64,000 nucleotides of DNA from the NCBI GenBank assembly GCA_043815505.1, contig JBDRIV010000004.1, positions 7,135 to 71,134 of the forward strand. The letters are read 5' to 3'. This DNA is from a bacterium (GTDB taxonomy: Bacteria; Patescibacteriota; JABMPQ01; JBDRIV01). The notes under the pieces are model-generated. The model saw only the letters and a list, made by a program, of their open reading frames with translations. It ran no database searches and had not been told where the DNA came from. The translations under genes and the position numbers were made by a program. Numbering within the stretch: position 1 is the first letter of the stretch; every line of letters begins with the position of its first letter. Shown piece by piece: positions 4,088 to 39,078 of this stretch.

Positions 4088-4107
4088 TTATTATGATTAA
4101 TACTTTT

Positions 4108-5241: not shown

Positions 5242-5242
5242 A

Positions 5243-14739: not shown

Positions 14740-14788
14740 AATATTTCTTGTGTTGCCAATATTTTAGATTCTACTTTAGACGCCCATC

Positions 14789-16078: not shown

Positions 16079-16084
16079 ATTATT

Positions 16085-17245
16085 TTACTTTAAGTATGTT
16101 TTTAGTTTGGCTGCTTTGTTGGTTTTTTCCCAAGTGAAATCTTTATCGTTGCGTCCGAAATGTCCATAAGCAGCAGTTTTTTTGTAGATTGGTCTCTTGA
16201 GTCTTAGAGTTTTGATGATGTCAGCTGGTTTCAGGGAAAATTCACGTTTTACAATTTTTTCGATTTGCTGATCAGGAAGCTGGCCCGTTCCAAAGGTTTG
16301 CACTAAAACTGAAACCGGTTCGGCGCGTCCAATTACATAAGCTATTTGCACCTCACATTTTTCTGCCAATTTGGCTGCCACAATGTTTTTAGCAATGTAG
16401 CGTCCCATATAAGATGCACTTCTATCAACTTTGGATGGATCTTTTCCAGAAAAACATCCCCCACCGTGAGAACCGTGCCCACCATAAGTATCAACAATTA
16501 TTTTTCTGCCGGTAAGGCCCGCATCAGCTGGTGGCCCACCTTTAACAAATTTTCCGGTAGCATTTATGAAATATTTAGTTTTACTGTCCAAATATTTACC
16601 TGCTACAGGTTTAATTACTTTGTTTATAATATCTTTTTCCAGTTTGACTGGTGAAACCTCAGGATTGTGTTGAGCTGCACAAACAACGGTATCAACTCTT
16701 TTGGGCTTACCATCTACGTATTCAACAGCAATTTCTATTTTTCCATCTGGTCTGAGGTAAGGAAGAGTTTTATTTTTTCTAACATCAGCTAGCTTTTTAG
16801 CCATTTTGTGAGAAAGCAAAATTGGCAAAGGCATTAATTCTGGAGTTTCGTTACAAGCATAACCAAACATTAAACCTTGATCTCCTGCTCCTTGTTCTTT
16901 AAATTTTCCCTTTCCTTTATCAACGCCTTGAGCAATATCACCCGACTGTTCATCAACTGCTACAATTACACCACAATCATCACCAGAAAAACCAATACTT
17001 CCATTATTGTAGCCTATTTCCTTTATAGTATCGCGGGCAATCTTGGCTATATCGACATAACCTTTAGTTCTAATTTCTCCTGCTACTACCACTAAACCGG
17101 TAGTAACCAAGCATTCTACACCGGCTCTACTCTCAGGATCCTGAGATAGTAGCGAGTCTAGAATACTATCTGAAATTTGGTCGGCAACTTTGTCGGGATG
17201 CCCTTCAGTCACAGATTCTGAAGTAAATATGTATTTGTTGGCCAT
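16085..17245 (-). CDS. metK: S-adenosylmethionine synthetase
   Basis: [28 protein letters not shown]-like GGGCFSGKD, and DTYGG. Confidence 0.92.
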
Positions 17246-17260
17246 ATTTTTAATTAATAA

Positions 17261-18229
<969 letters not shown>

Positions 18230-18238
18230 TTAGATAAA

Positions 18239-19159
18239 TTATATCTTCCTTCGAAAATATTGTAAAGTTTCTTTTAATGTTTCCATTATATCAATTTGCG
18301 CTTGCCATGATGTTTCCTTATAGATTTTTTTAGGACTACCAACCAGGCACATAATATCACTTGTTCGCATCATGGCTGGATCATTTTCTATACTTATTTT
18401 CACCTTAGATAAACTAAGAAGTCGATTTAGTAAATCTTTAATAGTATAACCTTCTCCTCGGGCAATATTATAGACCTCGCCAGCTTTCCCGTTTAATAAA
18501 ATATCTCGATACGCCCGAACCACATCTCTAACATCTAGCATTTCTTTTTTTGGTTCTAAATTACCAACTTTAATAACTGGTTTTAATATTCCGGCTTCAA
18601 TTTGAGCAATTTGATTTGAAAATGATGGCACCACAAATTCCGTTGTCTGTCCTGGACCAGTATGATTAAATGGTCGAGCAATTTTTATTTTCAAATTACT
18701 TTTAAGGTATTCATTCGCGAGATTTTCCATAGCTAATTTACTTTCAGCATATATTCCCATTGCCTTTGTAGGACTTTTCTCTGTCAGAATAACTTCGGAG
18801 CTTCCGTAAACATAGGCTGAACTGACAAGTAATACATCTGTCTTTTTTTCTGATTGGGAAAGTGCTTGAAGTAAATTTTTAGTTCCACCGACGTTTACAT
18901 CGTATACTAACTTTTTGTTTTCTATTTGAGGATTGGCTACAGCAACTAAATGAATAACCAAATCAGGTTCAATTTCTTTAATTAGTTCAGCAAGCTTTAT
19001 ACTATTAGTTATGTCACACGACTGATGGTGATAACTTTTTTCGTTACTTTTATTTTTATCAATACCATATATTTTGTAATTTTTATCTCTCAGCAAAAAA
19101 GAGGTTAAATACCTCCCAACAAAACCTTGACTACCTGTAATTAAAATTCTTTTATGCAC
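18239..19159 (-). CDS. GDP-4-keto-6-deoxy-D-mannose reductase / GDP-6-deoxyhexose synthase (Rmd/Fcl-like SDR)
   Basis: ILITGSQGFVGRYL Rossmann motif and the YAESK catalytic motif. It lies immediately downstream of the short gmd. Confidence 0.6.
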   Translation of the reverse strand: MHKRILITGSQGFVGRYLTSFLLRDKNYKIYGIDKNKSNEKSYHHQSCDITNSIKLAELIKEIEPDLVIHLVAVANPQIENKKLVYDVNVGGTKNLLQALSQSEKKTDVLLVSSAYVYGSSEVILTEKSPTKAMGIYAESKLAMENLANEYLKSNLKIKIARPFNHTGPGQTTEFVVPSFSNQIAQIEAGILKPVIKVGNLEPKKEMLDVRDVVRAYRDILLNGKAGEVYNIARGEGYTIKDLLNRLLSLSKVKISIENDPAMMRTSDIMCLVGSPKKIYKETSWQAQIDIMETLKETLQYFRRKI

Positions 19160-20087
19160 TTTTTAAATTATTTTTAAACCAATCAACTGTTTGTTTGATG
19201 CCGTCCTTAAATTCCACTTCTGGTTGCCATTTAAAAGTTTCGTACAGTTCCGTATAAGATAAACAAGAAGTTTGTTGTTCGCCCAATTTTGCCTCACCGT
19301 GCTTTTCTTCGGCCATGCTCCCCAAAACTGTTTTGATGGAATTAAATACTTTATTCACGTCAGTCTCTTTTCCTGTACCAACATTGAAAATATGTTTTTC
19401 ACTTCTCTCTTCCAAAGCTAAAACATTGGCTCGCACAACATCAGAAACAAAAACATAATCTCTAGTTTGTTTACCATCACCATTTATGACTGCTTCTTCT
19501 TTTTCTATTAGCTTTTTAGAAAAGATTGCCACCACTCCTGCTTCACCGTGAGGATTCTGCCGTGGTCCGTAAACATTACCGTATCTAAGCGCTACGTAAC
19601 CAAGCTGGTGAACTTTATTATAATAATATAGATATTTTTCATTAGTTAGCTTGGCAATGCCATAAGGCGATTCGGGCTTGGCTTTGGCCGATTCTGGTGT
19701 GGGACGATTGTCGGTATCACCATAAATAGCACCACCGGTAGAAGCAAAAACGACCTTTTTAGTACGATTTTTAATGCAAGCTTGGTAAAGATTTAGACTA
19801 CCCAAGATATTAACTTCAGCATCAAAGGCTGGATCCTCAGTTGATTTTCTAACATCAATTTGAGCAGCAAGATGAACTAAAGCATCTGGTCTAAATTCAA
19901 CAAAAGTCTTTTCAATAAGTGTTTTATCTTTGATGTCACCTTTAATAAATTCCGCTGCCGTATTTACATATTCTTCATTGCCAGTTGAAAGATTATCAAT
20001 TATTAAAACGTCATGCTTGTTTTTTACTAAAGCATCAACTGTGTGTGAACCGATAAAGCCGGCTCCGCCTGTTACGATTACTTTCAT
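19152..20087 (-). CDS. NAD-dependent epimerase/dehydratase (UDP-glucose 4-epimerase family)
   Basis: VIVTGGAGFIGSHTVDAL, and YGIAKL (YxxxK). Confidence 0.75.
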   Translation of the reverse strand: MKVIVTGGAGFIGSHTVDALVKNKHDVLIIDNLSTGNEEYVNTAAEFIKGDIKDKTLIEKTFVEFRPDALVHLAAQIDVRKSTEDPAFDAEVNILGSLNLYQACIKNRTKKVVFASTGGAIYGDTDNRPTPESAKAKPESPYGIAKLTNEKYLYYYNKVHQLGYVALRYGNVYGPRQNPHGEAGVVAIFSKKLIEKEEAVINGDGKQTRDYVFVSDVVRANVLALEERSEKHIFNVGTGKETDVNKVFNSIKTVLGSMAEEKHGEAKLGEQQTSCLSYTELYETFKWQPEVEFKDGIKQTVDWFKNNLKSA

Positions 20088-20088
20088 A

Positions 20089-21474
20089 TTATTCTCCGAT
20101 AGAATTAATAGGGTCCCCGCCGGGATGTAAAAGCACTATCCAATTAGGGATGCGTTTAACTTGGCCATAATTATAACCCAAGCCTTCAAAGATTGATGGT
20201 GAACCGATGTGTCGGCGCTTGCCATTTTCCATTACAAAAATGTGACCCGATTCATCAGCAAACAATGTTCCGTCTTGTAATAAGACATTTGGTCCAGTGG
20301 CATAGCGATTCATTTCGGCAGTAGAAATTGTAATTATGTCTTGCCAACGAAAACGATTCTCAAAAACTATCCGATCGCTAACTGGTTGTTTTTTTCCACC
20401 ACTTATTAAGAACACAGCGCCACTATCAGCAGTTTTTACCAAAGCGCCATCAGGATGCTTTCTGGTATTTTTATCGGTTATTAAAGCACCATCACCATAA
20501 CTATTATACTCGGCCTGATTAATTGGCATGACGCGACTAAAATTGTATCCCAGGCTATCAAATACATCGCGCGAGGTTACTCCTCGGCGTTTTTCGTGTT
20601 CCACAACATAAATTGCACCTTGACCATCCAGCTGAATTAAAGTGCCATCAGGATATAAAAGCATGGTTCGTTCGGGATATTTTTGCAATTCAGTTGAACT
20701 AACTTCAATCACATTTCTCTCAGAAAACTGACGATAAGCAAATAAATTATCAGTTATAATAGCTCGTCTTTTTCCGTTGTCTATATAATAAACAATTCCT
20801 TCAGGAGAATCTTTTAAAAGTGAACCGTTAGGATGAGTAGCATCAAAATATGAAATCCAAATTTTCCAAAATAGAAAGTTGCCACCATTTCCTGTGACTG
20901 TATCTTTCGTACCTGCTGGAGCCCCTGCAACAGGCGTATAATTGTAAAGTCCGGCAGTGGCAGAATTAGCTGGTTTTACCGAAACACCATCCTGAGTAGT
21001 TCTACGAACATTTACTTTATAATTGTAATTACCCGGATTATCTAAATATCTTCTGAATTGCTTAGCAGCATAATTAATTTGATTAAAGACTCCACCAAAT
21101 TCACTTACGCTCCCATAACCCATTAGATGTCGCAAAGCTCCACTGGATAAATTTGATGTGGTTATAGCACTTTGTTCTTTTTGAGCATGAGCCAGTAGAA
21201 ATTGCTGACTGATACGATAATATTTAGCAGCATCATAAAATATTTGGGAAACCCGTTTTCTCCCTCCAATAGCATCAACGGCCATTCCAGCTAAACCACT
21301 TCCCTTAGATCTCAAAAAAGCCTCAATTTGATCTGGGTTCATTGATGATGAATTTGTATATTCATTATTAGAGACAATATTATTGGGATTAAAAGTTGCA
21401 GCTAAAACCAGCCCTGGCACCATCACTGATGCTAAAACTGTCAAGCATAGAATAAATCCGGTTGTTTTTTTCAT
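20089..21474 (-). CDS. Secreted protein with four tandem ~54-aa repeats
   Basis: Signal peptide MKKTTGFILCLTVLASVMVPGLVLA. The C-terminal half contains four repeats built on the pattern DG(T/A)L...G.(I/V)(Y/F).(I/V)..GK(R/K)..(I/V).S..(I/V)F...G(Y/F). Confidence 0.6.
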   Translation of the reverse strand: MKKTTGFILCLTVLASVMVPGLVLAATFNPNNIVSNNEYTNSSSMNPDQIEAFLRSKGSGLAGMAVDAIGGRKRVSQIFYDAAKYYRISQQFLLAHAQKEQSAITTSNLSSGALRHLMGYGSVSEFGGVFNQINYAAKQFRRYLDNPGNYNYKVNVRRTTQDGVSVKPANSATAGLYNYTPVAGAPAGTKDTVTGNGGNFLFWKIWISYFDATHPNGSLLKDSPEGIVYYIDNGKRRAIITDNLFAYRQFSERNVIEVSSTELQKYPERTMLLYPDGTLIQLDGQGAIYVVEHEKRRGVTSRDVFDSLGYNFSRVMPINQAEYNSYGDGALITDKNTRKHPDGALVKTADSGAVFLISGGKKQPVSDRIVFENRFRWQDIITISTAEMNRYATGPNVLLQDGTLFADESGHIFVMENGKRRHIGSPSIFEGLGYNYGQVKRIPNWIVLLHPGGDPINSIGE

Positions 21475-21484
21475 GATCTCCTAA

Positions 21485-22204
21485 TTATTTTTTATTTTTT
21501 TCGGCGATTAAATTGTTTATCAATAGAAGTGAATCAAAGGTTCCAGCATCAACCCAAAAACCCTTGGCCTTATCATACAACATCGTGCCTTCTTTAATAT
21601 AAATATTATTTAGATCAGTAATTTCTAATTCTCCCCTGTCTGATGGCTTTAATCCTTTAATAAATTCAAAACATCTATTGTCATACATATAAAGCCCGGT
21701 GACTGCTAAATTTGTTTCGGGATCAGTTGGTTTTTCAATTATTTCTTCTATTTTATCTCCAGAAATTTTGGCTACACCAAATCTTTCTGGGTCTGGAACT
21801 TCTTTCAAAACAACCTTAGCTCCTTTTTCTTTTTTAGAAAATTCCTCCACCGCCTGCTTAAAATTATCTTCGAAAACATTGTCGCCAAGAATTGCTACCA
21901 CCGCTTCATCATCAGCAAAGTCTTCGGCCAGTCCCAGGGCTTGAGCAATTCCTCCCGGTTTTTCCTGTAATTCATAGCTAAGTTTTACTCCCAGTTCTTT
22001 TCCGGAACCAAGCAAATCTAAATACTGACCAGCATGTTCTGTACCAGAAATTATAAGTATATTTTCTATACCCGCATCTTTTAGAGTTAAAATGGGATAA
22101 TAAATGAGTGGTTTGTCATAAACTGGCAAAACACTTTTGTTAACTATTTTTGTCAGCGGCTTAAGTCTTGTACCTGAACCGCCAGCAATAACTACACCTT
22201 TCAT
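21485..22204 (-). CDS. rmlA: Glucose-1-phosphate thymidylyltransferase, short form (RmlA-like)
   Basis: MKGVVIAGGSGTRLKPLT...LPVYDKPLIYYPI closely matches the RmlA N-terminus. The protein is 239 aa, which is the short type. Confidence 0.75.
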   Translation of the reverse strand: MKGVVIAGGSGTRLKPLTKIVNKSVLPVYDKPLIYYPILTLKDAGIENILIISGTEHAGQYLDLLGSGKELGVKLSYELQEKPGGIAQALGLAEDFADDEAVVAILGDNVFEDNFKQAVEEFSKKEKGAKVVLKEVPDPERFGVAKISGDKIEEIIEKPTDPETNLAVTGLYMYDNRCFEFIKGLKPSDRGELEITDLNNIYIKEGTMLYDKAKGFWVDAGTFDSLLLINNLIAEKNKK

Positions 22205-23025
22205 AATTTTTTGAAATAATCTTTAAGGGCTTCCTGCCAAGAGCGTAGTGAATCAGTTTTGGTATTATTTAAAATACTAAAGCGCGGTCGGTTGGCTTTC
22301 ATGGCATAATCTTTAGTCGCTACCGGTTTCACTTTTACTTTCTGCCCTGATCTTTTTATAAGTTCTCTGGCAAAATCAAACCAACTAGTTTTGTTTTCAT
22401 TTACTAGATGATAAATTCCAAATGGCCGTCTGCTTTCGAACAATTCTCTTGTTCCTTGTGCTAAATCATAAGTCCAAGTCGGTTTGCCAAATTGGTCATT
22501 TACCACCTCAATGCTATCAGATTCTTCAGCTTTTTTCAATATAGTATCAATAAAGTTTTTCCCGTTTTTTCCATATAACCATTGGGTACGAATTATATAA
22601 AAATCGGAAGTATTATTAATAATATTCTTTTCGCCCATTACTTTGGAACGACCATAAGCATTCACGGGATTTACAGTCTCATCTTCATTATAGCCGACTT
22701 CTTTATCACCCTTAAAAACATAGTCCGTACTATAATGAATTAGTGGAATTAGATTATTTTTACAAATTCCCGCTAACATTCCTGGAGCTTCACCGTTTAC
22801 TTTATTGGCCAATTCTTCATTGTCTTCAGCACCATCAACATCGGTATAGGCAGCCGCGTTAATTACCAATTGGGGTTTTTCTAAATTTACAATTCTTTCC
22901 ACTTTGTCCCTGTCGGTAATATCAATATCTTCAATATCTTGCGCTAAAATATCATAACCGTCAGAAAAGACCTCAACCAAATCGGTCCCTAACATTCCTT
23001 TTGCTCCCAGTATTAATATTTTCAT
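22201..23025 (-). CDS. rmlD: dTDP-4-dehydrorhamnose reductase
   Basis: MKILILGAKGMLG, YGRSK, and a size of 274 aa. Confidence 0.8.
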   Translation of the reverse strand: MKILILGAKGMLGTDLVEVFSDGYDILAQDIEDIDITDRDKVERIVNLEKPQLVINAAAYTDVDGAEDNEELANKVNGEAPGMLAGICKNNLIPLIHYSTDYVFKGDKEVGYNEDETVNPVNAYGRSKVMGEKNIINNTSDFYIIRTQWLYGKNGKNFIDTILKKAEESDSIEVVNDQFGKPTWTYDLAQGTRELFESRRPFGIYHLVNENKTSWFDFARELIKRSGQKVKVKPVATKDYAMKANRPRFSILNNTKTDSLRSWQEALKDYFKKL

Positions 23026-23040: not shown

Positions 23041-24036
23041 TTATTTGTATTGTTTTTTATAATATTCTAAATATTCTCCGGTTTTAATTGGTTGCCACCA
23101 CCAGTCATTAGCTTTATACCAATCGACGGTAGCAGCTAGTGCTTTATCAAAATCAAATTCAGGCTGCCAACCAAGCGTCCGCAATTTATCACTGTTTAAA
23201 GCGTAACGAAAATCGTGGCCAGGACGATCGGTAACATATTCTATCATATCTTCTCCTTTACCCATTAAATTTAGGATTTTTTTCGTGGTTTCCATATTGG
23301 TAGAAAATTCTTTTGTGCCAATATTATAGGTTTCTCCCGCTTTACCATTTTTCCAAATTGTTTCTACCGCCCGACAATGATCTGAGGTATAAATCCATTC
23401 CCTCATTTGCTCACCCTTACCATAAACAGGAACTTTTTTGTCTTCAACTAAATTGGTAATAAAAAGTGGAATTAGTTTTTCTGGATACTGATAAGGTCCC
23501 ATAAAATTACAGCTATGTGTAATAATTACCGGTAAATCATAAGTTACATGGTAAGCGCGACACAAATGGTCTGCTCCAGCTTTGGAGGCTGAATATGGAC
23601 TGTTCGGCATAAAAGGGCTATCTTCTGTAAATTCACCTTCTGCAATACTACCATAAACTTCATCCGTTGAAATTTGAATATATTTTTTAATTTTGTATTT
23701 CTTGGCTGCTTCCAAAAGGGTGTAGGTGCCAACGACGTCGGTGAAAATAAAATCACGGGCCTGCTGAATGGAACGATCGACATGAGTTTCGGCAGCATAA
23801 TTTATTATTACCTCAATTCCCTTCTGCATCACTTCATCTACAATTTTTTCATCCACAATATCGCCTTGCACAAATTCGTAGTTCTTATTATTCGCAATAT
23901 CTTTTAAATTATTTAAATTTCCTGCATATGTAAGTTTATCCAGATTAACAATTTCTACATCAGGATGTTCTTGTAAAATGTAGTGAATAAAATTGGAGCC
24001 CATGAAACCGGCTCCGCCTGTAACAAGAATTTTCAT
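23041..24036 (-). CDS. rmlB: dTDP-glucose 4,6-dehydratase
   Basis: ILVTGGAGFMGSNF...VNLDKLTYAGN...YSASKAGADHL. Confidence 0.9.
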   Translation of the reverse strand: MKILVTGGAGFMGSNFIHYILQEHPDVEIVNLDKLTYAGNLNNLKDIANNKNYEFVQGDIVDEKIVDEVMQKGIEVIINYAAETHVDRSIQQARDFIFTDVVGTYTLLEAAKKYKIKKYIQISTDEVYGSIAEGEFTEDSPFMPNSPYSASKAGADHLCRAYHVTYDLPVIITHSCNFMGPYQYPEKLIPLFITNLVEDKKVPVYGKGEQMREWIYTSDHCRAVETIWKNGKAGETYNIGTKEFSTNMETTKKILNLMGKGEDMIEYVTDRPGHDFRYALNSDKLRTLGWQPEFDFDKALAATVDWYKANDWWWQPIKTGEYLEYYKKQYK

Positions 24037-24534: not shown

Positions 24535-25683
24535 TTATATTTGTTTTAAAGCCGCTTGCTTTTTTCTTACTTTTTTAGCTTGAATCAAGCCATAATAAGT
24601 ATTGGCTGTATCTCTAGCAATATCATCCCAATTAAATAATTCTTTAACAAATTTTTGATTAGCTCTTTTGATAGCCAGATTTTTTTCTAAACCTTTAAGT
24701 TTTTTCAAACTTCTAATTAAACTTGATTGGCTGTTATTTTTAAAATAATGGGCTTGTTTTTCAAAAGAAATTTTGTGCTCATGAACATCAGAAAGTAAAA
24801 CTTCGGCACCTTCAGCTAATGCTTCTAAAACCACAATTGGCAAACCTTCAGCTTGTGAAGGATGAATGTAAAGATAACAATTTTTATACAAAGCTCTAAG
24901 TTCTTCTTTATCTTGCCAGCCGGTGAAAGTAATATTGTCATTGCCAGCTGCCAGTTCATGTAATTCTTTTACATATTCTGAAGTATGAGAAGAATCACCA
25001 ACGATAACTAATTTTTTGTCAGTCTTAATTTTTTTATAAGCCTTAATTAAAAGATGAATATTTTTATGACGAACAAGTCTAGCTACTGTTAAAAAGTAAC
25101 CGTTCTTTTTAAGATTATTTCTTTTCAAAGTCTCGGGATCAATAGGTTCGTTTTCAGTTGTCACGCCATTAGGAATATAGGTAGCTACGGTGTTAAAAGT
25201 TTCCGCACAATGATTGGCAATATCCTTGGATACCGCAATGGTGTGATGACCAAATTTAGCCGTGGCATATTCACCAAACCGTAAATACATTTTTGCCAGT
25301 GGTCCCCATTTTTGGTGGAACTGATCACGACAATGAAAAGTATTTACTACCATTGCTTTTCTTTTCAAAAGTTTAGGAATTATAGACATAGTGGCAGGTC
25401 CAACGGCATGATAGTGAACAATGTCCACTTTTCTACGCAAGACATCTAAAGTTGAAAATAAAGTATGAGTAATAGCATCCAGATTTTTTGTAGGAATGGT
25501 GGGTGTAAAAATTAATTTAACACCTTTGTAAGTTTTTCTAACCGGTTGAACATAATGTTTTCGACAATACACAAAAACCTCGTGTCCCTGTTTTGCCAGG
25601 CGTACGGCTAATTCTTCTACATGTCTCTCTACTCCGCCATATGAGGCAGGTATACCTTTTTGGCCAATTATAGCTATTTTCAT
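24535..25683 (-). CDS. Glycosyltransferase family 4
   Basis: GT-B protein with the C-terminal SQAEGLPIVVLEALAEG E-x7-E motif. Confidence 0.75.
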   Translation of the reverse strand: MKIAIIGQKGIPASYGGVERHVEELAVRLAKQGHEVFVYCRKHYVQPVRKTYKGVKLIFTPTIPTKNLDAITHTLFSTLDVLRRKVDIVHYHAVGPATMSIIPKLLKRKAMVVNTFHCRDQFHQKWGPLAKMYLRFGEYATAKFGHHTIAVSKDIANHCAETFNTVATYIPNGVTTENEPIDPETLKRNNLKKNGYFLTVARLVRHKNIHLLIKAYKKIKTDKKLVIVGDSSHTSEYVKELHELAAGNDNITFTGWQDKEELRALYKNCYLYIHPSQAEGLPIVVLEALAEGAEVLLSDVHEHKISFEKQAHYFKNNSQSSLIRSLKKLKGLEKNLAIKRANQKFVKELFNWDDIARDTANTYYGLIQAKKVRKKQAALKQI

Positions 25684-25737
25684 CGTTTTTTGATTAACTG
25701 GGCATTATATTGTATTTAATCTATTTTGTCAAGTCCC

Positions 25738-28700
25738 TCACTGAATTAGACCTACAGCTGAAATTCCACCTCTAAAATAGTCTTCAAAAGCAAAGAACTG
25801 CAGACTATTTTCCCCACCACCAGTATTAAAAGTTCTAACTTGTGGTCCACCCGAAGCATTGGGACCAGTTATCACACCAGGCGTTCCATAATATGTTAGG
25901 GGTACAAAATCTATATTGGCACCCGCTTCAACCCCTTGAGGGTAAGCTCTAAATTCTGCCAATTGATTTCGTTCATTGTTATAACGATAAATTTTTGTCC
26001 AAGCTTCTCCATTTCTAAGTTGACTAACAGCAATTTCATCTTTGCCATCAGAGTCGGCGTCAACCGTGGCTACATCTACTCCGGTTCGAGAATCGGGATG
26101 AAAAGCATAAAACTGAATTGGTTTAAGAGCACCATTGGCTTCAAAAACTCTGATTTGGGGACCGCCACCAGTACCGGCGCCAACAATAACTTCTTCTTTG
26201 TTATCAGCGTCAATATCTCCCATAGCCACAGTGGCTCCAATTTCTAATCCGGGAGCAAAAGCTCGCCACTCACCTACTACAGTTTGTTCATCGTTATAAC
26301 GATAAACTTTAACCCAAGCTTCTCCGTTAGCAAATTGGGAAGCGGCAATTTCATCTTTACCGTCATTGTCAATATCACCACAGGCTACATCAACCCCAGT
26401 CCGGGAATCAGAATGAAAGGCAAAAAATTGAATTGGCTTAACCGAACCATTACTTTCAAAAACTCTAATTTGCGGACCGCCACCAGTACCGGCACCAGCA
26501 ATTATTTCTTCTTGACCATCACCATCAATATCACCGGAAGCTAGACGAACACCACCACGAAAGTTTTCGGCATAGGCATAAAATCTTGTTTCTTCTTGTC
26601 CTAAGTTGTTGAAAACTTTTATTTCTGGTGTGGCTCCAGCTCCACGAGCTACAGCAATTTTGTAATTAACTGTTATATTTTCACCACCACTTCCGTTATT
26701 TGGTGGCTTATTGGTATCTTGAGGCGGATCTACAACTGGCAAACTTGCTTTCACCTCACCATTAATTTCTAAAATCATGACCGAATGAGCGGGAATTCTT
26801 AAATCAATTGAATTGCCAGAAAATGATTGTCTAGATTCTGAAACTTGAACCTTAGTTATGCTTTCATTATGAGCATAAATGCTGGGACCATTTAAACTGT
26901 AAATTGTAACTTGTCTGTTTGAATTAAAATGGTCAATACCAATATCAGCCTGCATGGCAGTGTTGGGATGTTTGTTTATAATTAACAAATAAATCTTATC
27001 ACCAGATCTGGAAGCATAACTGGTAACATATTTGTTTTTGCTTAAAGCCGGTAAATTTCTAAATTGTCCTACCGAATATTTTGGACTACCTGTTACAGTA
27101 GAAGCTATAGCTTTATTTCCGTGATGTTCATTTACCAAACTGACAGCTAAAGCAGATGGTCTGGGATCACCGTTGTCTTTAAAAGCACCCCAGTGACTAC
27201 CAAAAACAGAAATTCCGTGAAACATACCAGCCGTAACTCCTTCCTGTTGCATTGCGCCCAGTAAATCAGCTGTCGCTATTCCATAGGCTAAACTACGACC
27301 AAGATTCTCATCACCGGTGTTAAATTCTGTAACCAAAACTTCCAACTCACTTGTTCTATTGCCATAGCGTCTGGCAATATCATTCAATCTATCAACTACC
27401 CCCATTCCTTGTCCGTAGGGAGTAGGATAATTTTTTTGAAAGCTTCTGGCTGAAGCCATCAACTGATGATAGCTTTCACCACCAATGCCATAAAAAGGAT
27501 AATAATGTACCGCCACAAAATCTATTTGATTGTTGGCTTCTTGAAATAAAACTCTTTCCCAATTAGCAACCGAATTATCCAACGCCACGTGCGCTCCAAT
27601 TTTTATGGACGGATCAACCGCCTTCATGGCACTAGAGAATTGTTTTACGGTTTGAGCATATTTAGAAGCCGTCATGGTGGCATCATCCCAGATGTAGTGT
27701 TCATTACCTATTTCCCAATACTTAATATGGCGATTTTCTACAATATTTAATTGGCGAACTAAATTGGCGGCATTCGTAGGAGTTCCTTTGGTATTGGCCA
27801 CCATTACAATTGGGCTATTTGTTTCGTCTGCTAAATCTAGGGCCGATTCAAAATCTCGCACTCCCCAAGGCTTGCCAGAATACGTTGGTTGACGTTGTTC
27901 TGCTCGCCAAATAAATCTGTAATTATTTAAAGTATTTTGAGAGCGAGCCGCAATTCCTATATAACCTTGATCAAATGGATTTCCAGCGGCCACCGGTTTT
28001 ACATCAACCTCAAATTTGTAATTGCGCCAATTTTTTAATCCGGCGCGTCTTAAAACAAAAGGAATTTTTCCTTCGTGAACATAGCGTCCATTTCCACTAG
28101 TCCAAGTTCCAGTATTTCTATAATAAGGAATATCGCCATTACTCCATTCAGAATCATCACTATCATTAAACAAGTCTTGATATAAAACTTCGTCGTTGGC
28201 CAAATTGGTAATTCTGACATTATTAAATATAACTTTCTCATTATCAGAACTAATTAAACCAATATCTCCAGTTGAAAAAGTTGAATCGGAATCAGAAAAT
28301 ACTACTTTGTTATCAATATATAATCTTAAACTTGATCCATTAACTCTAAATTCTAAATGATATTCTTGGCCGGGATTATAAGTTACATTGTCAGAATCTA
28401 AAACATAATATTTTCCATCTACAATTTTAACGAGCATTCTGGCACCCGGATCGTAAGGAGCAAAAATTCTTACTGCCCCAGCTGGATAATCTTCCAAGGC
28501 TTCATTTAAATTATCTTTATTAAAAAGTTCTGGATCAGAACTAAAACCAGCAACCTTACTATCTATGGAATTACCAATGTCTAAAGGGTTAACTCTAATT
28601 TTAATATTTTGGGTAGCGCGAGAATCGTGCGTTAGAGTAATTACCGCTATGATTAAAATAAGCAAACCAATTTTTAGAAAAAACAAAATCTCCCATTCGA

Positions 28701-28791
28701 CAAAGGGAGTGGCAATAATATGCAAAAATTGCCGTACCAATTTATAAATCTGTCGACCGATTTCTTTAATTTTTTTCCATAAATAAGCCAT
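25738..28791 (-). CDS. Large membrane-anchored surface protein with a clan GH-A glycoside hydrolase-like domain and C-terminal FG-GAP (integrin-alpha-type) repeats
   Basis: It has an N-terminal TM helix. The clan GH-A acid/base motif YWEIGNEHY and the nucleophile motif VTEFN are present. Three C-terminal FG-GAP-like blades carry GDIDGDGQEEI / CGDIDNDGKDEI / MGDIDADNKEEV. Confidence 0.7.
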   Translation of the reverse strand: MAYLWKKIKEIGRQIYKLVRQFLHIIATPFVEWEILFFLKIGLLILIIAVITLTHDSRATQNIKIRVNPLDIGNSIDSKVAGFSSDPELFNKDNLNEALEDYPAGAVRIFAPYDPGARMLVKIVDGKYYVLDSDNVTYNPGQEYHLEFRVNGSSLRLYIDNKVVFSDSDSTFSTGDIGLISSDNEKVIFNNVRITNLANDEVLYQDLFNDSDDSEWSNGDIPYYRNTGTWTSGNGRYVHEGKIPFVLRRAGLKNWRNYKFEVDVKPVAAGNPFDQGYIGIAARSQNTLNNYRFIWRAEQRQPTYSGKPWGVRDFESALDLADETNSPIVMVANTKGTPTNAANLVRQLNIVENRHIKYWEIGNEHYIWDDATMTASKYAQTVKQFSSAMKAVDPSIKIGAHVALDNSVANWERVLFQEANNQIDFVAVHYYPFYGIGGESYHQLMASARSFQKNYPTPYGQGMGVVDRLNDIARRYGNRTSELEVLVTEFNTGDENLGRSLAYGIATADLLGAMQQEGVTAGMFHGISVFGSHWGAFKDNGDPRPSALAVSLVNEHHGNKAIASTVTGSPKYSVGQFRNLPALSKNKYVTSYASRSGDKIYLLIINKHPNTAMQADIGIDHFNSNRQVTIYSLNGPSIYAHNESITKVQVSESRQSFSGNSIDLRIPAHSVMILEINGEVKASLPVVDPPQDTNKPPNNGSGGENITVNYKIAVARGAGATPEIKVFNNLGQEETRFYAYAENFRGGVRLASGDIDGDGQEEIIAGAGTGGGPQIRVFESNGSVKPIQFFAFHSDSRTGVDVACGDIDNDGKDEIAASQFANGEAWVKVYRYNDEQTVVGEWRAFAPGLEIGATVAMGDIDADNKEEVIVGAGTGGGPQIRVFEANGALKPIQFYAFHPDSRTGVDVATVDADSDGKDEIAVSQLRNGEAWTKIYRYNNERNQLAEFRAYPQGVEAGANIDFVPLTYYGTPGVITGPNASGGPQVRTFNTGGGENSLQFFAFEDYFRGGISAVGLIQ
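25940..26550. repeat. Two tandem ~300-bp near-identical DNA repeats inside the FG-GAP region of the 1017-aa gene
   Basis: The antisense ORF-track fragments 25936..26247 and 26284..26544 translate to near-identical peptides. The sense-strand protein repeats IAGAGTGGGPQIRVFESNGSVKPIQFFAFHSDSRTGVDVACGDIDNDGKDEI as IVGAGTGGGPQIRVFEANGALKPIQFYAFHPDSRTGVDVATVDADSDGKDEI. Confidence 0.6.
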
Positions 28792-28893
28792 AAAATACTA
28801 CTTATTTAACATGCTAGTATATTATAATTATTCTATTTTGTCAAGGATTAAAGAACCATGACTTTTTGGCTTAAATTAAGCATAAAATTCGAT

Positions 28894-28931
28894 AAAAAAT
28901 CCCCCCAATGACTTGTGAGTCTTGGGGGGGG
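28894..28931 (-). terminator. Rho-independent terminator (GC-rich hairpin plus U-run) downstream of the high-GC gene
   Basis: On the minus strand the sequence reads CCCCCCCCAAGACT-CACA-AGTCATTGGGGGG followed by ATTTTTTAT. It lies about 45 nt after the stop at 28975. Confidence 0.7.
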
Positions 28932-28974
28932 TTGAGGCGATTAACCTCTAGTTTGAAGGATAAGTGGAATTAAT

Positions 28975-29952
28975 TTAACTAGGACCGACACCTTGATTGG
29001 TATCAACGGCCAAGGTAATAACTGGACCCTTGTCTCCGCCCCAAGGATTAAGATCCCAGCCGTAGAGGAGAATTTCATCCATACTGAACACGCTCATTCT
29101 GAATTTGCACAACACGTGTTCGTTGTTTTCACCTCCGATGTGAATCATAACTCCATTTTTACTTCTCTGTAAAAGAAGTAATCCCCACACATATGGGTGG
29201 TAATTACTGGTGTTCCAATTACCGGGAAAAGTATACAGATGGCTGGTATTGTAGAATCCACCACCTGTATCAATATTAACGTCGCGAACCCAGGCCTCAA
29301 CCAACCCATCTGTGCGGGAGCGGAAGCTGTAAGCCATGTAGAACAGCCGGAAATGGTCCTGCGTTTCCTGGTTGATGACCGCCAGCTTTTCCGACAACCG
29401 ATAGATAAGAAAGGATGGTGGTGCTGACCAAGTCAGCACGACTCCCATTCCCTCTTGCAAGCGATACGGGCCGTCCCACTCATGCGAGGTACCCAGTTCC
29501 GGATAGCACTGTTGTACCTCTCGTTGCCAGAACGGGGAGTAATCGCCATATCCATCAATCAAGGTGTTCATCGGAACATTAACTGTTGCGTTAATGTTTA
29601 TCGGCTGCATATCATACAGCGACATGTTTGCCGGCACTGATACAATCCGATTAATTCCATAAGACATCAATCCTTTTTGAGGACCGACGTACTCTTCCTT
29701 AACCGTCTGCATCGTATCCACGTTATACCACATCACCAGAACGGTGTCGGTATAATTTACCCGTGGGAAATACCCAACAATGTCCTGGCCGGTTTCGGTG
29801 AAGACCTGGTCGTAGGACCGATCGGCCTTAACCATCTGAACAAATTCATTTTCCACACCCGGCAAGTTGGGCCGAATGAGAGCGGCATTCACGGTTCCCG
29901 TGAACGTGACGACCAAAACGGCCATCAAAGCGATAATCAGTATTCTTTTCAT
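28975..29952 (-). CDS. Secreted hypothetical protein encoded in a high-GC island
   Basis: Signal peptide MKRILIIALMAVLVVTFTGTVNA. The start is the ATG at 29952, preceded by AGGAGA; the ORF track extends it to a GTG at 29976. GC is about 48% against about 31% in the flanks. The gene has its own terminator. Confidence 0.6.
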   Translation of the reverse strand: MKRILIIALMAVLVVTFTGTVNAALIRPNLPGVENEFVQMVKADRSYDQVFTETGQDIVGYFPRVNYTDTVLVMWYNVDTMQTVKEEYVGPQKGLMSYGINRIVSVPANMSLYDMQPININATVNVPMNTLIDGYGDYSPFWQREVQQCYPELGTSHEWDGPYRLQEGMGVVLTWSAPPSFLIYRLSEKLAVINQETQDHFRLFYMAYSFRSRTDGLVEAWVRDVNIDTGGGFYNTSHLYTFPGNWNTSNYHPYVWGLLLLQRSKNGVMIHIGGENNEHVLCKFRMSVFSMDEILLYGWDLNPWGGDKGPVITLAVDTNQGVGPS

Positions 29953-30178
29953 TCTCTTTCTCCTGATTTGCCACACGACGATGGCAAAAGTTGTAGTTGC
30001 AGTCGTACTCGAACAAACTTAGTTTTGCACCTCCTTTCCACTTTTCCTTCAGTTGTAATGAACGTTATTTATTATATTTATTTTTAACAGCACCAGATGG
30101 TACTGTCCTGCCCTTTCTATATTCTTTTTAAACACTTCTTACTGCTTTCAGAAAGAGCTGGATAGTATCACCTATTTT

Positions 30179-33188: not shown

Positions 33189-34366
33189 TGGACTTTTTCC
33201 TTTACTTCCTTTTTAATTGTAGTTTCACGAAAATAATTTATCTCTTCGTCAAGACGGAGTTTTTCAATTATATTTTCAAATTGATTAGCTCTTTTTAACC
33301 AAGTATTTTCATAAGCAAATCTCATGCGTTGTTCTTTTCTGCCATGATTATCAGTAATTGCCAAGCGTACGGTTTTAGCAAAATCTGCCACAATTTCTGC
33401 TTGATAAAGATGTCCCTCAAATTCATTTTTCAAATCTAAATTGAAACTAACTACTGGTTTTCCTAACAATAAATATTCGTATATTTTTAAAGGATTGCTG
33501 GAACGATTAAATAAATTGTCTTTATATGGCAAAAATCCAACATCAAAAGAATCGATTATGGATCCTAAGCTCTCTTTGGGTTGAGCCGGATAAAAGAAAA
33601 CATTTGAATAATTTAATTGCTGCTGTAATTTCGTTTCGGTATTACCAACAAAAACAAAGGAAAAATGTTTGTTGTCAGCAATTACCTTCTCCAGCATTTC
33701 TTTGTCAATTCTTTCGTTCACTGTCCCCTGAAATCCGATAATAGGTTTGGGTAATTGTTTTAAATCGTAAATAATATTTTTATTTACTTTGCTAAAACTT
33801 TCTGGATTACAAGCATTGCGGAATAAAAATGTTTTGGGATTATACAAACTGGCTTTTTCGGCTAAAGCATTTGAGCAGGCCAAGACCGCGTCAACATTTT
33901 TAGCCATAGCTACTTGTTGCCAAGAAATATGTTTCCCATTTCTTTCTGGCATAGCAGCATAATCATCAGTCCAGTGCCAAAAATTTGTTGGATATTTAAA
34001 TTTAAGCGGAATTTTGTAATCTGCAGGGTTAGTAAATATTATCACATCTAGACTGGCATCAGAATTCTTTCTAATCGCTCTTTCAATTAGAATCTCATGA
34101 ATTTTTGCTGTCGCTTTAAATCTGTGCCAAGGAAAAAAACCAAAAACATTAATAATTTTAAGATTTTCATTTACTTGTATTTTTCTGGAAAGTAAATACT
34201 TCCATCTTTTCATATTTTTTAAAGCTGACAAAATATGCCAAGAAGGATTAATATAAGTAACCTGATGATCCTTAGACAATTCTAAGGTTAGTTCTTGTTT
34301 AGAGAACTTAGTTTCTGGCCAAAATACATTGGAAACATATACGATTTTAAGTGGTAGCTTGCTCAT
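33185..34366 (-). CDS. Glycosyltransferase family 4-like
   Basis: GT-B pattern. The likely start is the internal Met (MSKLPLKIVYV); the track start at 34432 overlaps the upstream gene by 86 nt. Confidence 0.6.
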   Translation of the reverse strand: MSKLPLKIVYVSNVFWPETKFSKQELTLELSKDHQVTYINPSWHILSALKNMKRWKYLLSRKIQVNENLKIINVFGFFPWHRFKATAKIHEILIERAIRKNSDASLDVIIFTNPADYKIPLKFKYPTNFWHWTDDYAAMPERNGKHISWQQVAMAKNVDAVLACSNALAEKASLYNPKTFLFRNACNPESFSKVNKNIIYDLKQLPKPIIGFQGTVNERIDKEMLEKVIADNKHFSFVFVGNTETKLQQQLNYSNVFFYPAQPKESLGSIIDSFDVGFLPYKDNLFNRSSNPLKIYEYLLLGKPVVSFNLDLKNEFEGHLYQAEIVADFAKTVRLAITDNHGRKEQRMRFAYENTWLKRANQFENIIEKLRLDEEINYFRETTIKKEVKEKVQ

Positions 34367-35798
34367 GGTTTGATTTATAATATAAATATTCGGTAATTCC
34401 GAAAATAATTCCCAGTAACAACGTAGCAGCATAGTTGGTTAGCATCACAGTTGATAATCCAAATGTTAGAAAACCTAATAAACTGGCAATTAAGGCACTG
34501 GCAATCATTAAACTTTTAGCATCAAGTTTTCTTTTGAAAACTACTACTAAAAGTTTCCAACCATAATAAAGAAAGAAAGCTAGCATGGCTAGTAATCCCG
34601 GCACACCGGCTTTGTAAGCAATCATTAAATAGGAATTATCAATATATGGTAGATCATAAAACTGATTGCGATATTCAATTCGCACCGGTTGTCCTAAGCC
34701 GACACCAAAAACAGGATTTTCTTTTGTTTCCTCAATAATTTGTGGTGTAACAGAAACCCTAAAACGATATGACGCATCATCAGCATAATTAATATTAGTA
34801 AGAGTTTTAACGCGTTCTAATGTTTGACCGTACAATTTTGAATCTCTAACCCAAGGAATGCTTATTAGCAAGGTGACTATAATTAGAATTAGGGCTAAAC
34901 TTTTTAAAACTGTTTGCCATTTCATCTGTTTCTGCCAAACACTTAAAACTAAAAATATAATTCCACAAGCAACCAGTACCGCCCACAAGGTTCTGGTTTG
35001 AGAAAGAATTACACCTAAAGTAATGGCTAGTAAACTTAGTAAATACATAATTTTTAAGCTTGGTTTAGTCTCATATTTGATAAAAACAATTGATAACAAC
35101 CACGGTAAAAAGAAAAAACTGGTGTTGCGAAAATTAAATCTTAGTTCCTGAAAAAGACCAGGAAAACTTAGACCCATTAATCCCACCACAAAACTTTCTA
35201 TATAAGATAAAGCAAAAAAGAGAATAGAAAAACCAGCTGCTCCAAAAATGAAAGCGGACAAAAGTTTGTCTCTATCCTCATTACTTTTAAGTGATGTAAT
35301 AACCGGCAGAATTACTAAGTAATACGAGAAAGATCTGATGTCGTTCATAAAATCTGTCAACGCTGAACCGTTTAAAATTCCGTGATACGAAGCCACGGCT
35401 AACCATAAAATTAGAGGAGCACTTATTAGAATTGTACCTGTGACATATGATCGCCACTTTTCTGAACCTATTAACAGTTTAAAAAGCCAGACTCCCAAAA
35501 TTACTAACAATACCAATTCAATATATCTGATGTTAAATCCTAAAAGATTGATAGAAAAATATGACCAAGCACCAACACCTTCGGGAATAAGTAAAACTAA
35601 AGCTGCTAAAACCCCGAGCGCGGTCGGCAAATTCTTCCAAGCCAAATAGATTAGGCCTGAAACTGCTATAATTCCAAAAACTGCCATCGCTCCAGAATAA
35701 GCCACCATTCCAGACGCTAATAATATTAAAAGAGCACCTCCGATTAACGCGAGAAGTGAAATATCAGGAAATATTTTTTTGACTTGCGCTTGTTCCAT
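34347..35798 (-). CDS. O-antigen ligase / polymerase-like (Wzy_C family) polytopic membrane protein
   Basis: About 11-12 TM helices with a larger extracytoplasmic loop near the C-terminal third, the Wzy/WaaL topology. It lies adjacent to the Wzz-like gene and the GTs. Confidence 0.55.
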   Translation of the reverse strand: MEQAQVKKIFPDISLLALIGGALLILLASGMVAYSGAMAVFGIIAVSGLIYLAWKNLPTALGVLAALVLLIPEGVGAWSYFSINLLGFNIRYIELVLLVILGVWLFKLLIGSEKWRSYVTGTILISAPLILWLAVASYHGILNGSALTDFMNDIRSFSYYLVILPVITSLKSNEDRDKLLSAFIFGAAGFSILFFALSYIESFVVGLMGLSFPGLFQELRFNFRNTSFFFLPWLLSIVFIKYETKPSLKIMYLLSLLAITLGVILSQTRTLWAVLVACGIIFLVLSVWQKQMKWQTVLKSLALILIIVTLLISIPWVRDSKLYGQTLERVKTLTNINYADDASYRFRVSVTPQIIEETKENPVFGVGLGQPVRIEYRNQFYDLPYIDNSYLMIAYKAGVPGLLAMLAFFLYYGWKLLVVVFKRKLDAKSLMIASALIASLLGFLTFGLSTVMLTNYAATLLLGIIFGITEYLYYKSNHEQATT

Positions 35799-37914: not shown

Positions 37915-39078
37915 CTACTGTTCAGCCAGAACTATTTTTAGTGAAAAATTATTATCTTCTCTAATCACTTTTAGTATTACTTCATCTTGAGGATCAAAGT
38001 TTTGCATAATTTTGGAAAATGATGATGTTTTTCCAATCTCATAATCATCAATTTGCGTTATTATATCACCCGATCGCAGTTTGGCTTCAGCGGCAGGTGA
38101 ATCTTCTACCACAGCCGATATGCGGACATCATCAGAGTAAATGAGAATTCCATGATCAGAGGGCAAATCATTTAGTGAAGCAAATTCAGGAGTTAAAGGA
38201 ATGTATCTAATTCCTAAAAATGGTCTCAGTATTTTGCCACCAGCAATAACACTGTCAATAGCTTTTTTGGCATCGTCAATTGGCAAAGCGAAACCAATAA
38301 GCTGACCCGAACTATCTACAGCAGTATTTATACCAACAACGCGACCAGATAAATCAAGTAGCGGTCCGCCCGAATTGCCGGGATTAATAGAAGCATCAGT
38401 TTGAATAACTCCTTCTAGTTGCTCACTTTGCGAGGCAAATGAACCACCGGCGTATATATTTCTGTCTAAACCACTAACAATGCCTTTGGTTACAGTGTTT
38501 TGATAATTACCCAAGGCATTACCAATCGCTACTACAGTTTGTCCAACTTCCAAAGCAGAAGAGTTTCCTAATTCTAAAACTGGTAAAGTAGAGGCTTCAA
38601 TTTCTAAAAAAGCTAAATCATTAATCGTATCTCTTATTACCTTGGTGACTGTAAACTTTTTCCCGGCACTGGTAATTACTGTATAGGTTGCATCAGTAGC
38701 GGAAACAACATGACGGTTGGTTAAAATTAAACCATCACTGGTAATGATAAATCCCGTTCCACTTGCCTGTTGATTAATAGTTTGCCCAAAAATATTTGTA
38801 CTTTGAATATCAGCCATAATACTAACAACCGAGGAACTGGCTTCTTTAATTATATCTGTTACCGCTTCATTAATTTCGACATTTATAACTTCTTCACTCG
38901 TAGCATTGTTGTTGTTCGTTTCAGTATTTGTTTTAGAACTAAAGTAACGATCGGTAACAAAACCTCCTAAAGCGCCAGCTACTAAAGAAATTATAATTAG
39001 TAAAACTAGATATCGACCTTTTCTTTTTGGCGATTTCTTCATTTTTATTGTTTCTGTTTCCATATTTATATTGTCCAT
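37915..39078 (-). CDS. HtrA/DegP-family serine protease with PDZ domain
   Basis: Catalytic motifs TNRHVV and GNSGGPL, a C-terminal PDZ domain, and an N-terminal TM anchor. Confidence 0.8.
   Translation of the reverse strand: MDNINMETETIKMKKSPKRKGRYLVLLIIISLVAGALGGFVTDRYFSSKTNTETNNNNATSEEVINVEINEAVTDIIKEASSSVVSIMADIQSTNIFGQTINQQASGTGFIITSDGLILTNRHVVSATDATYTVITSAGKKFTVTKVIRDTINDLAFLEIEASTLPVLELGNSSALEVGQTVVAIGNALGNYQNTVTKGIVSGLDRNIYAGGSFASQSEQLEGVIQTDASINPGNSGGPLLDLSGRVVGINTAVDSSGQLIGFALPIDDAKKAIDSVIAGGKILRPFLGIRYIPLTPEFASLNDLPSDHGILIYSDDVRISAVVEDSPAAEAKLRSGDIITQIDDYEIGKTSSFSKIMQNFDPQDEVILKVIREDNNFSLKIVLAEQ

Follow-up and report, generated by a model that had tools for sequence, protein, structure and literature searches.

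A predicted membrane-anchored clan GH-A glycoside hydrolase with nested LamG-like modules and a six-bladed FG-GAP propeller, encoded in a conserved surface-glycan locus of Parcubacteria-type bacteria

We have identified a gene for a predicted membrane-anchored glycoside hydrolase (GH) of clan GH-A within a surface-glycan synthesis locus of a bacterium of the Patescibacteriota. The gene lies at 25738..28791, minus strand, of a 64,000-nucleotide stretch of contig JBDRIV010000004.1 (assembly GCA_043815505.1, positions 7,135 to 71,134), here called the window; coordinates are those of the window, and features are on the minus strand throughout unless otherwise marked. Sequence comparison and structural modelling point to an intact catalytic domain whose nearest characterised relatives are GH51 enzymes, and the gene is encoded within a polysaccharide synthesis locus in a conserved manner. 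Taken singly, the parts of the protein are familiar: a hydrolase of clan GH-A, a binding module of the concanavalin-like type and an FG-GAP propeller. The role that we propose for it also has well-known analogues. The novelty lies in how the parts are combined: a barrel that appears to be broken after its second strand by a pair of modules, joined to a six-bladed FG-GAP propeller and conserved in a Wzy-type locus of a Parcubacteria clade.

The open reading frame (ORF) starts with ATG and is a complete coding sequence (CDS) of 1017 amino acids (aa) plus a stop codon. It is a genuine gene, and its product is identical to NCBI protein MFH1509295.1, which is named only 'MAG: FG-GAP-like repeat-containing protein [bacterium]' (MAG, metagenome-assembled genome) and is encoded on a contig of 255 kb; the catalytic domain and the nested binding modules are unannotated in that public record. 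A sequence-based reading that preceded this work (the original prediction) had described a 'giant' surface protein of this length with an N-terminal anchor. The adjective overstates a protein of 1017 aa; the ORF and the anchor are borne out by the translation, by a hydrophobic segment and by a helix in the AlphaFold2 (AF2) model. The hydrophobic segment, WEILFFLKIGLLILIIAVITLTH (28627..28695; aa 34-56 by translation), is covered by a helix at residues 33-55 when DSSP is applied to the model, and an equivalent N-terminal segment is present in every orthologue in the alignment. A Lys/Arg-rich N-terminus precedes it, so that the positive-inside rule predicts a signal-anchor in the N-in/C-out orientation. 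The hydrolase is predicted on this basis to be membrane-anchored with its catalytic part outside.

The predicted domain order after the transmembrane anchor is a barrel interrupted after beta2 by two LamG/CBM66-like modules (CBM, carbohydrate-binding module), a GH51-type beta-sandwich, a linker and a six-bladed FG-GAP propeller. The first part of the putative GH-A fold, with an N-terminal strand, beta1, alpha1 and beta2 and including the invariant R108, occupies 28441..28620 (aa 58-117). It is followed by the nested insertion of two all-beta LamG/concanavalin-like modules (DUF1080 / CBM66-like) at 27895..28440 (aa 118-299) and by the remainder of the (beta/alpha)8 barrel, from alpha2 to alpha8, at 27121..27894 (aa 300-557). 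The C-terminal beta-sandwich of the GH module lies at 26746..27120 (aa 558-682, with AF2 strands between 560 and 680). A disordered Pro/Asn/Gly-rich linker at 26671..26745 (aa 683-707) has a predicted local distance difference test score (pLDDT) below 50 and differs among orthologues in both length and sequence; the propeller fills the rest of the protein, 25741..26670 (aa 708-1017). The full-length AF2 model was built from 15 sequences and has a pLDDT of 77.

The catalytic domain was recognised by comparison with solved structures. When the single sequence was searched against PDB sequences with phmmer, the Thermotoga GH51 arabinofuranosidases 3s2c, 4atw and 3ug3 were matched over query residues 333-643 (E 5e-19), and a profile of the family raised the GH51 match to E 6e-32. 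The GNE of the motif EIGNEHY aligns on the GNE of the GH51 structures 3s2c and 3ug3, and with the family profile the sandwich at aa 558-682 aligns to residues 345-483 of 3s2c; a C-terminal beta-sandwich of this kind is known from GH51, GH44, GH79 and GH39. Foldseek returned the same GH51 structures as best matches for the model (E 3e-20, target template modelling (TM) score 0.58, about 20% identity), followed by GH44 endoglucanases and then a GH79 glucuronidase, and among the 50 matches listed the top ones were all GH-A enzymes of these three families (E 1e-14 to 3e-20). Eight strand-helix units are found in the model when aa 58-117 are included.

Both of the catalytic Glu motifs of clan GH-A that had been proposed for the protein, EIGNEHY and VTEFN, are present, and both Glu residues are invariant in the 15 family members (the window protein and its 14 relatives) as well as in six distant relatives that hold the GH domain only. 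The predicted acid/base, E364, stands at the end of beta4 and is encoded at 27700..27702; the predicted nucleophile, E489, stands at the end of beta7, on the strand at residues 484-490 of the model, and is encoded at 27325..27327 (both codons were checked). The VTEFN motif aligns to 'LEWDG' of the GH-only relatives. R108, N333, N363, H429, Y431 and D509 are likewise invariant in the 15 family members, also when the six GH-only relatives are added. We conclude from these comparisons that the protein has an intact clan GH-A catalytic domain, with GH51 enzymes as its nearest characterised relatives.

Curated family models placed the domain less well. No Pfam GH model was convincingly passed by the protein: GH53 reached 23.1 of the 24 bits required and GH39 21.9 of 26, both as partial matches around the acid/base, and scores for GH39 (PF01229) ranged over 21.9-23.2 bits for a partial match in the same place. 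The NCBIfam model ArfA scored 49.3 bits against a cut-off of 625. Pfam and NCBIfam assigned no GH family to the whole protein, to a construct with the LamG-like modules deleted or to one orthologue, with borderline partial matches around the acid/base to GH53, GH39, GH79n and GH_cc. No GH51 Pfam domain was found in the window protein, and PF06964 and PF22848 were recorded for some orthologues only, graded weak wherever a strength was stated. The GH assignment therefore comes from the matches to solved GH51 structures, and membership of the domain in GH51 is not established. We take the residues of the GH51 -1 subsite, from GsAbfA, to be a Glu in the beta1 motif 'FxEH', an Asn in 'PGGN' and a Trp after the nucleophile. 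The family carries 'YGYS' as against 'FxEH', 'TEFNT' as against 'DEWNVW' and the insertion in place of the loop after 'PG', the correspondence being by motif only. The beta1 motif itself (28530-28560; aa 78-87) reads IDSKVAGFS in the window protein, ISP[DN]L[YF]GYS in 13 of the 14 orthologues and ISPxxxG in the GH-only relatives.

The two nested LamG-like modules had been missed by the original prediction, as had the six-blade count of the propeller and the conserved synteny of the gene. The profile and PDB matches start only at about residue 333, which leaves too few residues ahead of the acid/base for four barrel strands. In the AF2 secondary structure, the missing strands are supplied from the other side of the insertion: a strand at 61-75, beta1 at 81-84, alpha1 at 92-101 and beta2 at 107-110 are followed by two all-beta domains, at 118-196 and 202-297, after which the barrel resumes with alpha2 at 314-323, beta3 at 328-332, alpha3, beta4 at 358-361 (GNE), beta7 at 484-490 (TEFN), beta8, alpha8 and the beta-sandwich at 560-680. 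The segment equivalent to window aa 56-690 was aligned with MAFFT for six family members and the six GH-only relatives, which had been found by an exhaustive HMMER search. In this alignment, the 'ISPxLYG' (beta1) and 'FRYPGG' (beta2) of the GH-only relatives fall on window residues 76-117, and window residues of about 118-299 stand opposite a gap some 180 residues long. When the family sequences were spliced and their profile compared with PDB sequences, the HMMER alignment was not extended into beta1-beta3. Taken together, the model and the alignment indicate that aa ~118-299 are two LamG/DUF1080/CBM66-like modules set in the beta2-alpha2 loop of the barrel.

The identity of the modules is suggested by marginal matches. 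PF06439 (DUF1080 / 3-keto-disaccharide hydrolase, concanavalin-like) scored 27.5 bits against a cut-off of 26.8 when aa 115-300 were scanned alone; in the scan of the whole protein it scored 21.9 bits, below that cut-off. The match covered profile positions 116-187 alone. It was matched at E <= 0.01 in nine of 15 orthologues, and the insert also matched weakly the CBM66 module of a Bacillus levanase (4azz, E 0.001). In other proteins, some of them very large, this module is found in tandem arrays; the highest count was 13 matched stretches, in a protein of 3465 aa. Among 1.84 billion representatives, only about five clusters at 50% identity matched aa 56-690 from end to end, so that the nested architecture seems confined to a small family.

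The C-terminal region had been described as carrying integrin-type FG-GAP blades. The FG-GAP part of that description stands: the Pfam cut-offs were passed for FG-GAP (PF01839, 44 against 22.1 bits) and FG-GAP_3 (PF13517, 54.5 against 26.9 bits), FG-GAP models were matched in all 15 family members, and four predicted Ca-binding DxDxDG loops lie at aa 754, 806, 859 and 911. The integrin-type blade number does not. Seven blades define the integrin-type FG-GAP propeller (PMC3192720), whereas the window sequence has six repeats, and an AF2 model of the isolated propeller (11 sequences; pLDDT 89, predicted TM score 0.89) shows six four-stranded groups, 24 strands in all; the propeller is accordingly modelled as six-bladed. 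The loop between blades 5 and 6 is degenerate in the window protein (VPLTYYGTPG), and GD[IV][DN]xDG is kept there in most orthologues (P0002-P0012); together with the altered beta1 motif, this suggests that the window protein has diverged somewhat further from the ancestral state than its relatives have. The best PDB match of the propeller in Foldseek was the UmbA4 chain of a Streptomyces umbrella toxin with teichuronic acid (9oee; E 6e-8, query TM 0.57, 15% identity), and further matches were to integrin alphaV, rhamnogalacturonan lyases of polysaccharide lyase family 11 (PL11) and the Vibrio biofilm matrix protein Bap1. The UmbA4 propeller is a six-bladed lectin that recognises a cell-surface glycopolymer, teichuronic acid (PMC13274773). 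It is a reasonable inference that the window propeller acts as a Ca-dependent glycan-binding lectin.

The propeller DNA contains an internal repeat, which had been interpreted as two blades of 85-90% DNA identity (25.94-26.55 kb) arising from recent tandem duplication or from ongoing expansion or contraction. Comparison of the gene with itself did give a single outstanding offset, of 315 nt and well above background (the next-best offset reached 53% over 150 nt). It corresponds to two tandem units of 105 codons, each holding two blades: unit A at 26233..26547 (aa 749-853), which spans blades 2-3 when the register is set by the Ca loops, and unit B at 25918..26232 (aa 854-958; blades 4-5). The identity first reported applies to a short core only, being 88% over the best 60 nt and 84% over the best 100 nt; it falls to 81% over the best 150 nt and to 72-73% over the whole unit. 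Tandem Repeats Finder (TRF), run over 25500-29000, reported only two trivial short repeats and not the 315-nt units. Opposite the two units, and for that reason mirroring each other, lie two antisense ORFs (25936-26247 and 26284-26544, plus strand; 103 and 86 aa); they are wholly inside the conserved CDS of the other strand and are thus almost certainly not genes.

The age of the repeat was assessed from the homologues. End-to-end alignment showed the six-repeat layout, with both units, in all 15 family members, so that copy number has been fixed across the family. In a neighbour-joining tree of the 30 units of these proteins (500 bootstraps), the A units and the B units of the orthologues formed separate groups, from which it follows that the duplication predates the family. 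The two window units behave differently. Window A was sister to window B in 437/500 bootstraps, both on the B side of the tree, and a split joining them with the B units of P0002-P0012, to the exclusion of the A units of those proteins, was found in 487/500 (P0013-P0015 were left out of the bootstrap reference sets). Unit A of the window protein bears a B-type KPIQFFAFH with an extra residue, as against EIANFFPFH in the A units of the orthologues.

Some of this would be explained if the tandem duplication were recent, if copy number were actively changing or if the repeat were an artefact of assembly. The units are more alike in the window gene than in any orthologue, with 73% DNA identity against 45-62% (over 300 nt, in the equivalent units of seven orthologous genes) and 68% protein identity against 34-55% within each orthologue. 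They have in common the derived, lineage-specific residues DSRTGVDVA, and identical residues are encoded by an identical codon at 47/70 positions against 37.6 expected from the codon usage of the gene (one-sided binomial P 0.016). Against this stand the same blade number and both units in 15 of 15 homologues, the separate clades of orthologue A and B units, a difference between the copies at 27% of nucleotides and the absence of any array reported by TRF, which together contradict a fresh duplication or ongoing expansion and contraction; copies so different are also unlikely to have been merged or created by an assembler. We therefore find this explanation hardly credible. The simplest reading of the sequences is a single old B-to-A gene conversion, or replacement by re-duplication, after the split from the sampled relatives, which would have been followed by about 27% divergence. 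The repeat has no evident role in variation.

The gene had been placed beside a glycan factory, and this is upheld: its neighbours are glycan-synthesis genes, and it is conserved within the locus. In the window, it stands within a long run of minus-strand surface-glycan synthesis genes. Downstream are a glycosyltransferase of family 4 (GT4; 24535..25683), a HIT protein, a dTDP-glucose dehydratase-like gene (rmlB; 23041-24036), RmlD (22201-23025) and an rmlA-like nucleotidyltransferase (21485-22204). Immediately upstream is a secreted-type protein of 333 aa (28975-29976) with the signal-peptide-like N-terminus MKRILIIALMAVLVVTFTGTVNA, for which no Pfam match was found, nor any counterpart by tblastn in eight related loci. 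Beyond it follow a methyltransferase, a radical S-adenosylmethionine (SAM)/SPASM enzyme, two GT4s, a Wzy_C protein (34347-35798) and a DegT aminotransferase.

An orthologue was found in or adjoining surface-glycan genes in all seven of the loci examined (L001 and L003-L008). In five (L001, L003, L004, L005 and L006), subsets of RmlB/C/D, HIT, GT4, methyltransferase and Wzy_C genes lie within 10 kb of the orthologue, and in four of those five, a GT4 copy 46-52% identical to that at 24535-25683 of the window stands beside the hydrolase gene. In L007 and L008, a methyltransferase or GT4 gene is adjacent, and the contig ends 1.5-1.8 kb past the gene. P0016, the closest relative examined from outside the candidate phyla radiation (CPR), has the GH domain only and is encoded inside an exopolysaccharide locus with Poly_export/Wza-Wzz, Wzc, ABC-transporter (Wzt), GT and Wzy genes.

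Several other genes of these loci deserve mention. At 13666-19159, the glycan cluster of the window has genes for a sulfotransferase-like protein, a UDP-glucose/GDP-mannose dehydrogenase, a SAM synthetase and a GDP-mannose 4,6-dehydratase. For a CPR bacterium, it would be unusual to have a methylated deoxyhexose glycan that is sulfated or contains uronic acid. Adjoining the rml genes, at 20089-21474, is a secreted-looking protein of 461 aa with no Pfam match and the internal repeat 'DG.l....G.iy.v..GKRR.i'. Relatives 32-50% identical to it are similarly placed in L004 and L006, and the L004 match overlaps a gene with weak FG-GAP matches. Two HtrA-like Trypsin_2-PDZ proteases (37915-39078 and 40122-41336) lie near each other just outside the glycan locus, and a Trypsin_2/PDZ gene likewise stands at the locus edge in L006. 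Near the orthologue, L004 encodes an ASD1_dom (GH51-like) protein of 792 aa (18289-20667) that adjoins a GT4, and L007 encodes a beta-helix and FG-GAP protein of 1033 aa (3261-6362); from these two, modules may have been shuffled among several envelope proteins in related bacteria. Across the 64-kb window, the minus strand carries 61 of the 68 ORFs that reach 120 aa or more; of the seven plus-strand ones, four overlap longer ORFs of the minus strand. A negative GC skew is seen in all but one of 32 successive 2-kb segments (31/32). Scans of the whole stretch gave no tRNA genes and no Rfam matches.

Candidate transcription signals surround the hydrolase gene. A terminator-like hairpin at 28901..28929 (folding free energy -20.6 kcal/mol, z -4.1; none of 200 shuffles folds as well) is directly followed by a U-run at 28892-28900. 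It would close the upstream gene (28975-29976), and the hydrolase gene would thus open a new transcription unit. A promoter-like site, TTGACA-17-TATACT (11/12), lies about 25 nt upstream of the ATG (28816..28844), and a perfect sigma-70 consensus, TTGACA-17-TATAAT, lies at 25704..25732, within the 54 nt that separate the stop codon of the hydrolase gene from the start of the GT4, both by pattern match only. The total count of promoter-like sites was not above shuffle expectation, so that these signals do no more than suggest a separate transcription unit.

The hydrolase family is small and known so far only from Parcubacteria/Patescibacteria-type assemblies. A search of 5.8 billion proteins yielded 14 full-length relatives, 37-42% identical and 1002-1026 aa long, two of which bear names, one of a Parcubacteria-group MAG and one of a Patescibacteria-group MAG. 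The wider GH family is much larger. A scan of genome contigs with the GH profile gave more than 500 distant relatives among the matches listed (23-38% identity), from Fibrobacterota, Actinomycetota, Paenibacillaceae and others, and no CPR orthologue was among the matches listed. The distant relatives often carry CBM6-type modules, and several have CBM6 and Fn3.

For the function of the protein, we propose a PslG-like, locus-encoded processing hydrolase that acts on the cell's own surface glycan, and we judge the chance that this is correct to be about even. In this proposal, E364 as acid/base and E489 as nucleophile would carry out retaining double-displacement hydrolysis, by analogy with clan GH-A chemistry. 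The conserved neighbourhood suggests as substrate the rhamnose-containing surface glycan made by the Wzy-type locus around the gene (rmlA/B/D, GT4s, Wzy_C, methyltransferase and radical SAM genes). We envisage the enzyme on the outer face of the membrane where Wzy-type products emerge; synteny and precedent suggest that it may trim, size or release the polymer there, and it would be kept on the polymer by the nested pair of CBM-like modules and by the lectin-like propeller on its tether. PslG, BcsZ and PelA likewise trim, size or release their exopolysaccharides. GH genes are described as common in exopolysaccharide loci (PMC9075953), and PslG is an endoglycosidase with two catalytic Glu residues whose inner-membrane association is required for Psl production (PMC6813494). 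Several points weigh against the proposal. Synteny is the sole link between the enzyme and the product of the locus; with no curated GH model convincingly passed, family membership gives no specificity; and the confidence of the full-length model is moderate. The loop with the sugar-binding Asn of GH51, which we take to be N74 of GsAbfA, is the one replaced by the insertion, so that the -1 subsite is presumably unlike that of GH51. The gene itself appears to be bounded by its own terminator and promoter and not to be internal to an operon, and the wider GH family is typical of polysaccharide degraders, which makes a scavenging role plausible.

A role in host attachment or glycan remodelling had been suggested for the protein; glycan remodelling is the better-supported half, and host attachment is neither supported nor refuted. 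The enzyme and its lectin-like propeller might instead recognise and cut the surface glycopolymer of a host bacterium, aiding attachment, envelope penetration or nutrient release. The restriction of the family so far to Patescibacteria-type assemblies, the presumed episymbiotic lifestyle, the anchored protein with its domains outside the cell on a long flexible linker and the match of the propeller to a lectin that binds the teichuronic acid of another cell would all suit such a factor. A weapon against a host would not be expected to have a conserved place in the cell's own glycan-synthesis locus with orthologues about 40% identical. Moreover, an anchor of about 23 residues with about 960 residues beyond it gives limited reach, the UmbA4 match is modest, and the episymbiosis of the source organism is itself presumed only; we regard this host-directed role as unlikely. 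We consider it rather improbable that the protein is an ordinary cell-bound carbohydrate-active enzyme that degrades environmental (e.g. plant or microbial) polysaccharide for nutrients and stands in the glycan locus by accident. Its nearest characterised relatives are indeed GH51 arabinofuranosidases, GH44 glucanases and GH79 glucuronidases, its distant relatives, several with CBM6 and Fn3, are abundant in polysaccharide-degrading phyla, and the nested modules are similar to CBM66. However, no sugar-uptake or catabolic genes were identified adjacent to the gene in the window or in the five well-covered orthologous loci, where GT4, Wzy_C and rml genes are found instead; the adjoining GT4 is conserved, and even the non-CPR relative P0016 sits in an exopolysaccharide-synthesis locus.

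Retaining GH-A chemistry allows transglycosylation, and the GH-A domain could transfer or cross-link finished glycan onto a wall or surface acceptor; the conservation of the gene in a synthesis locus and its anchoring where Wzy products emerge would fit that activity too. Nothing speaks positively for such a transglycosylase or ligase, the loci already hold Wzy_C proteins, a group that includes ligases, and we think it very unlikely. A more far-reaching version of the processing hydrolase, which we would call a long shot, is a surface-glycan editor of Parcubacteria, in which the nested CBM pair and the Ca-dependent six-bladed lectin would let the tethered GH-A enzyme move along the cell's own rhamnose-type glycan and cut or transfer it, thereby setting the length or pattern of the glycan for host contact. 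If true, the enzyme would represent a new family or subfamily in CAZy with a new architecture, and it would give access to the way in which ultrasmall episymbionts construct the surface by which they make contact.

The significance of the processing hydrolase that we favour does not depend on so strong a version, and our findings do not overturn current understanding. A predicted intact hydrolase in the Wzy-type locus of several Parcubacteria is a testable candidate for surface-polysaccharide processing in uncultivated ultrasmall bacteria, a process that likely matters at the interface with host cells. The protein also offers what appear to be clean examples of two binding modules nested together within one loop of a GH-A barrel and of a six-bladed FG-GAP propeller, and the gene a clean example of intragenic gene conversion that mimics recent duplication.

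The protein can be compared with known systems part by part. As in CBM66 and DUF1080 (PF06439) modules, to which its first nested module is related by a score that reaches the cut-off when scanned alone and by the match to the CBM66 of Bacillus levanase, it seems to have concanavalin-like binding modules; unlike them, its modules are predicted to be nested in a catalytic barrel and not appended, and its matches to them are marginal, with only part of the profile covered (positions 116-187). With integrin-alpha-type FG-GAP propellers, including bacterial ones (PMC3192720), it has in common FG-GAP repeats above the Pfam cut-off, D-x-D-x-D-G loops and a fold match to integrin alphaV; it differs in having six predicted blades against seven and neither a beta-subunit partner nor a ligand-binding context. 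The propeller of UmbA4 (9oee) is six-bladed like that modelled here and binds teichuronic acid, whereas the identity between the two is 15%, the query TM score is 0.57, and UmbA4 is part of a secreted toxin particle.

The GH51 arabinofuranosidases (Thermotoga Araf51: 3ug3, 3s2c, 4atw) resemble the catalytic part in the barrel with its C-terminal beta-sandwich, the GNE acid/base, the beta7 Glu nucleophile and an H-x-Y after beta6. The window protein is about 20% identical to them and departs from them in the two-module insertion of about 180 residues after beta2, the membrane anchor and the added propeller; the enzymes of GH51 serve plant-polymer catabolism as soluble exo-enzymes, which are mostly intracellular or secreted. 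The closest functional parallel that we propose is PslG of Pseudomonas aeruginosa (GH39), which is likewise encoded by a polysaccharide-locus gene, belongs to clan GH-A with two catalytic Glu residues and is associated with the cytoplasmic membrane. Other hydrolases of exopolysaccharide loci are BcsZ, PelA and PgaB. The window protein is not a GH39 enzyme, is more than twice as large as PslG and adds nested LamG-like modules and a propeller, and it comes from a CPR organism whose envelope we assume to be Gram-positive-like.

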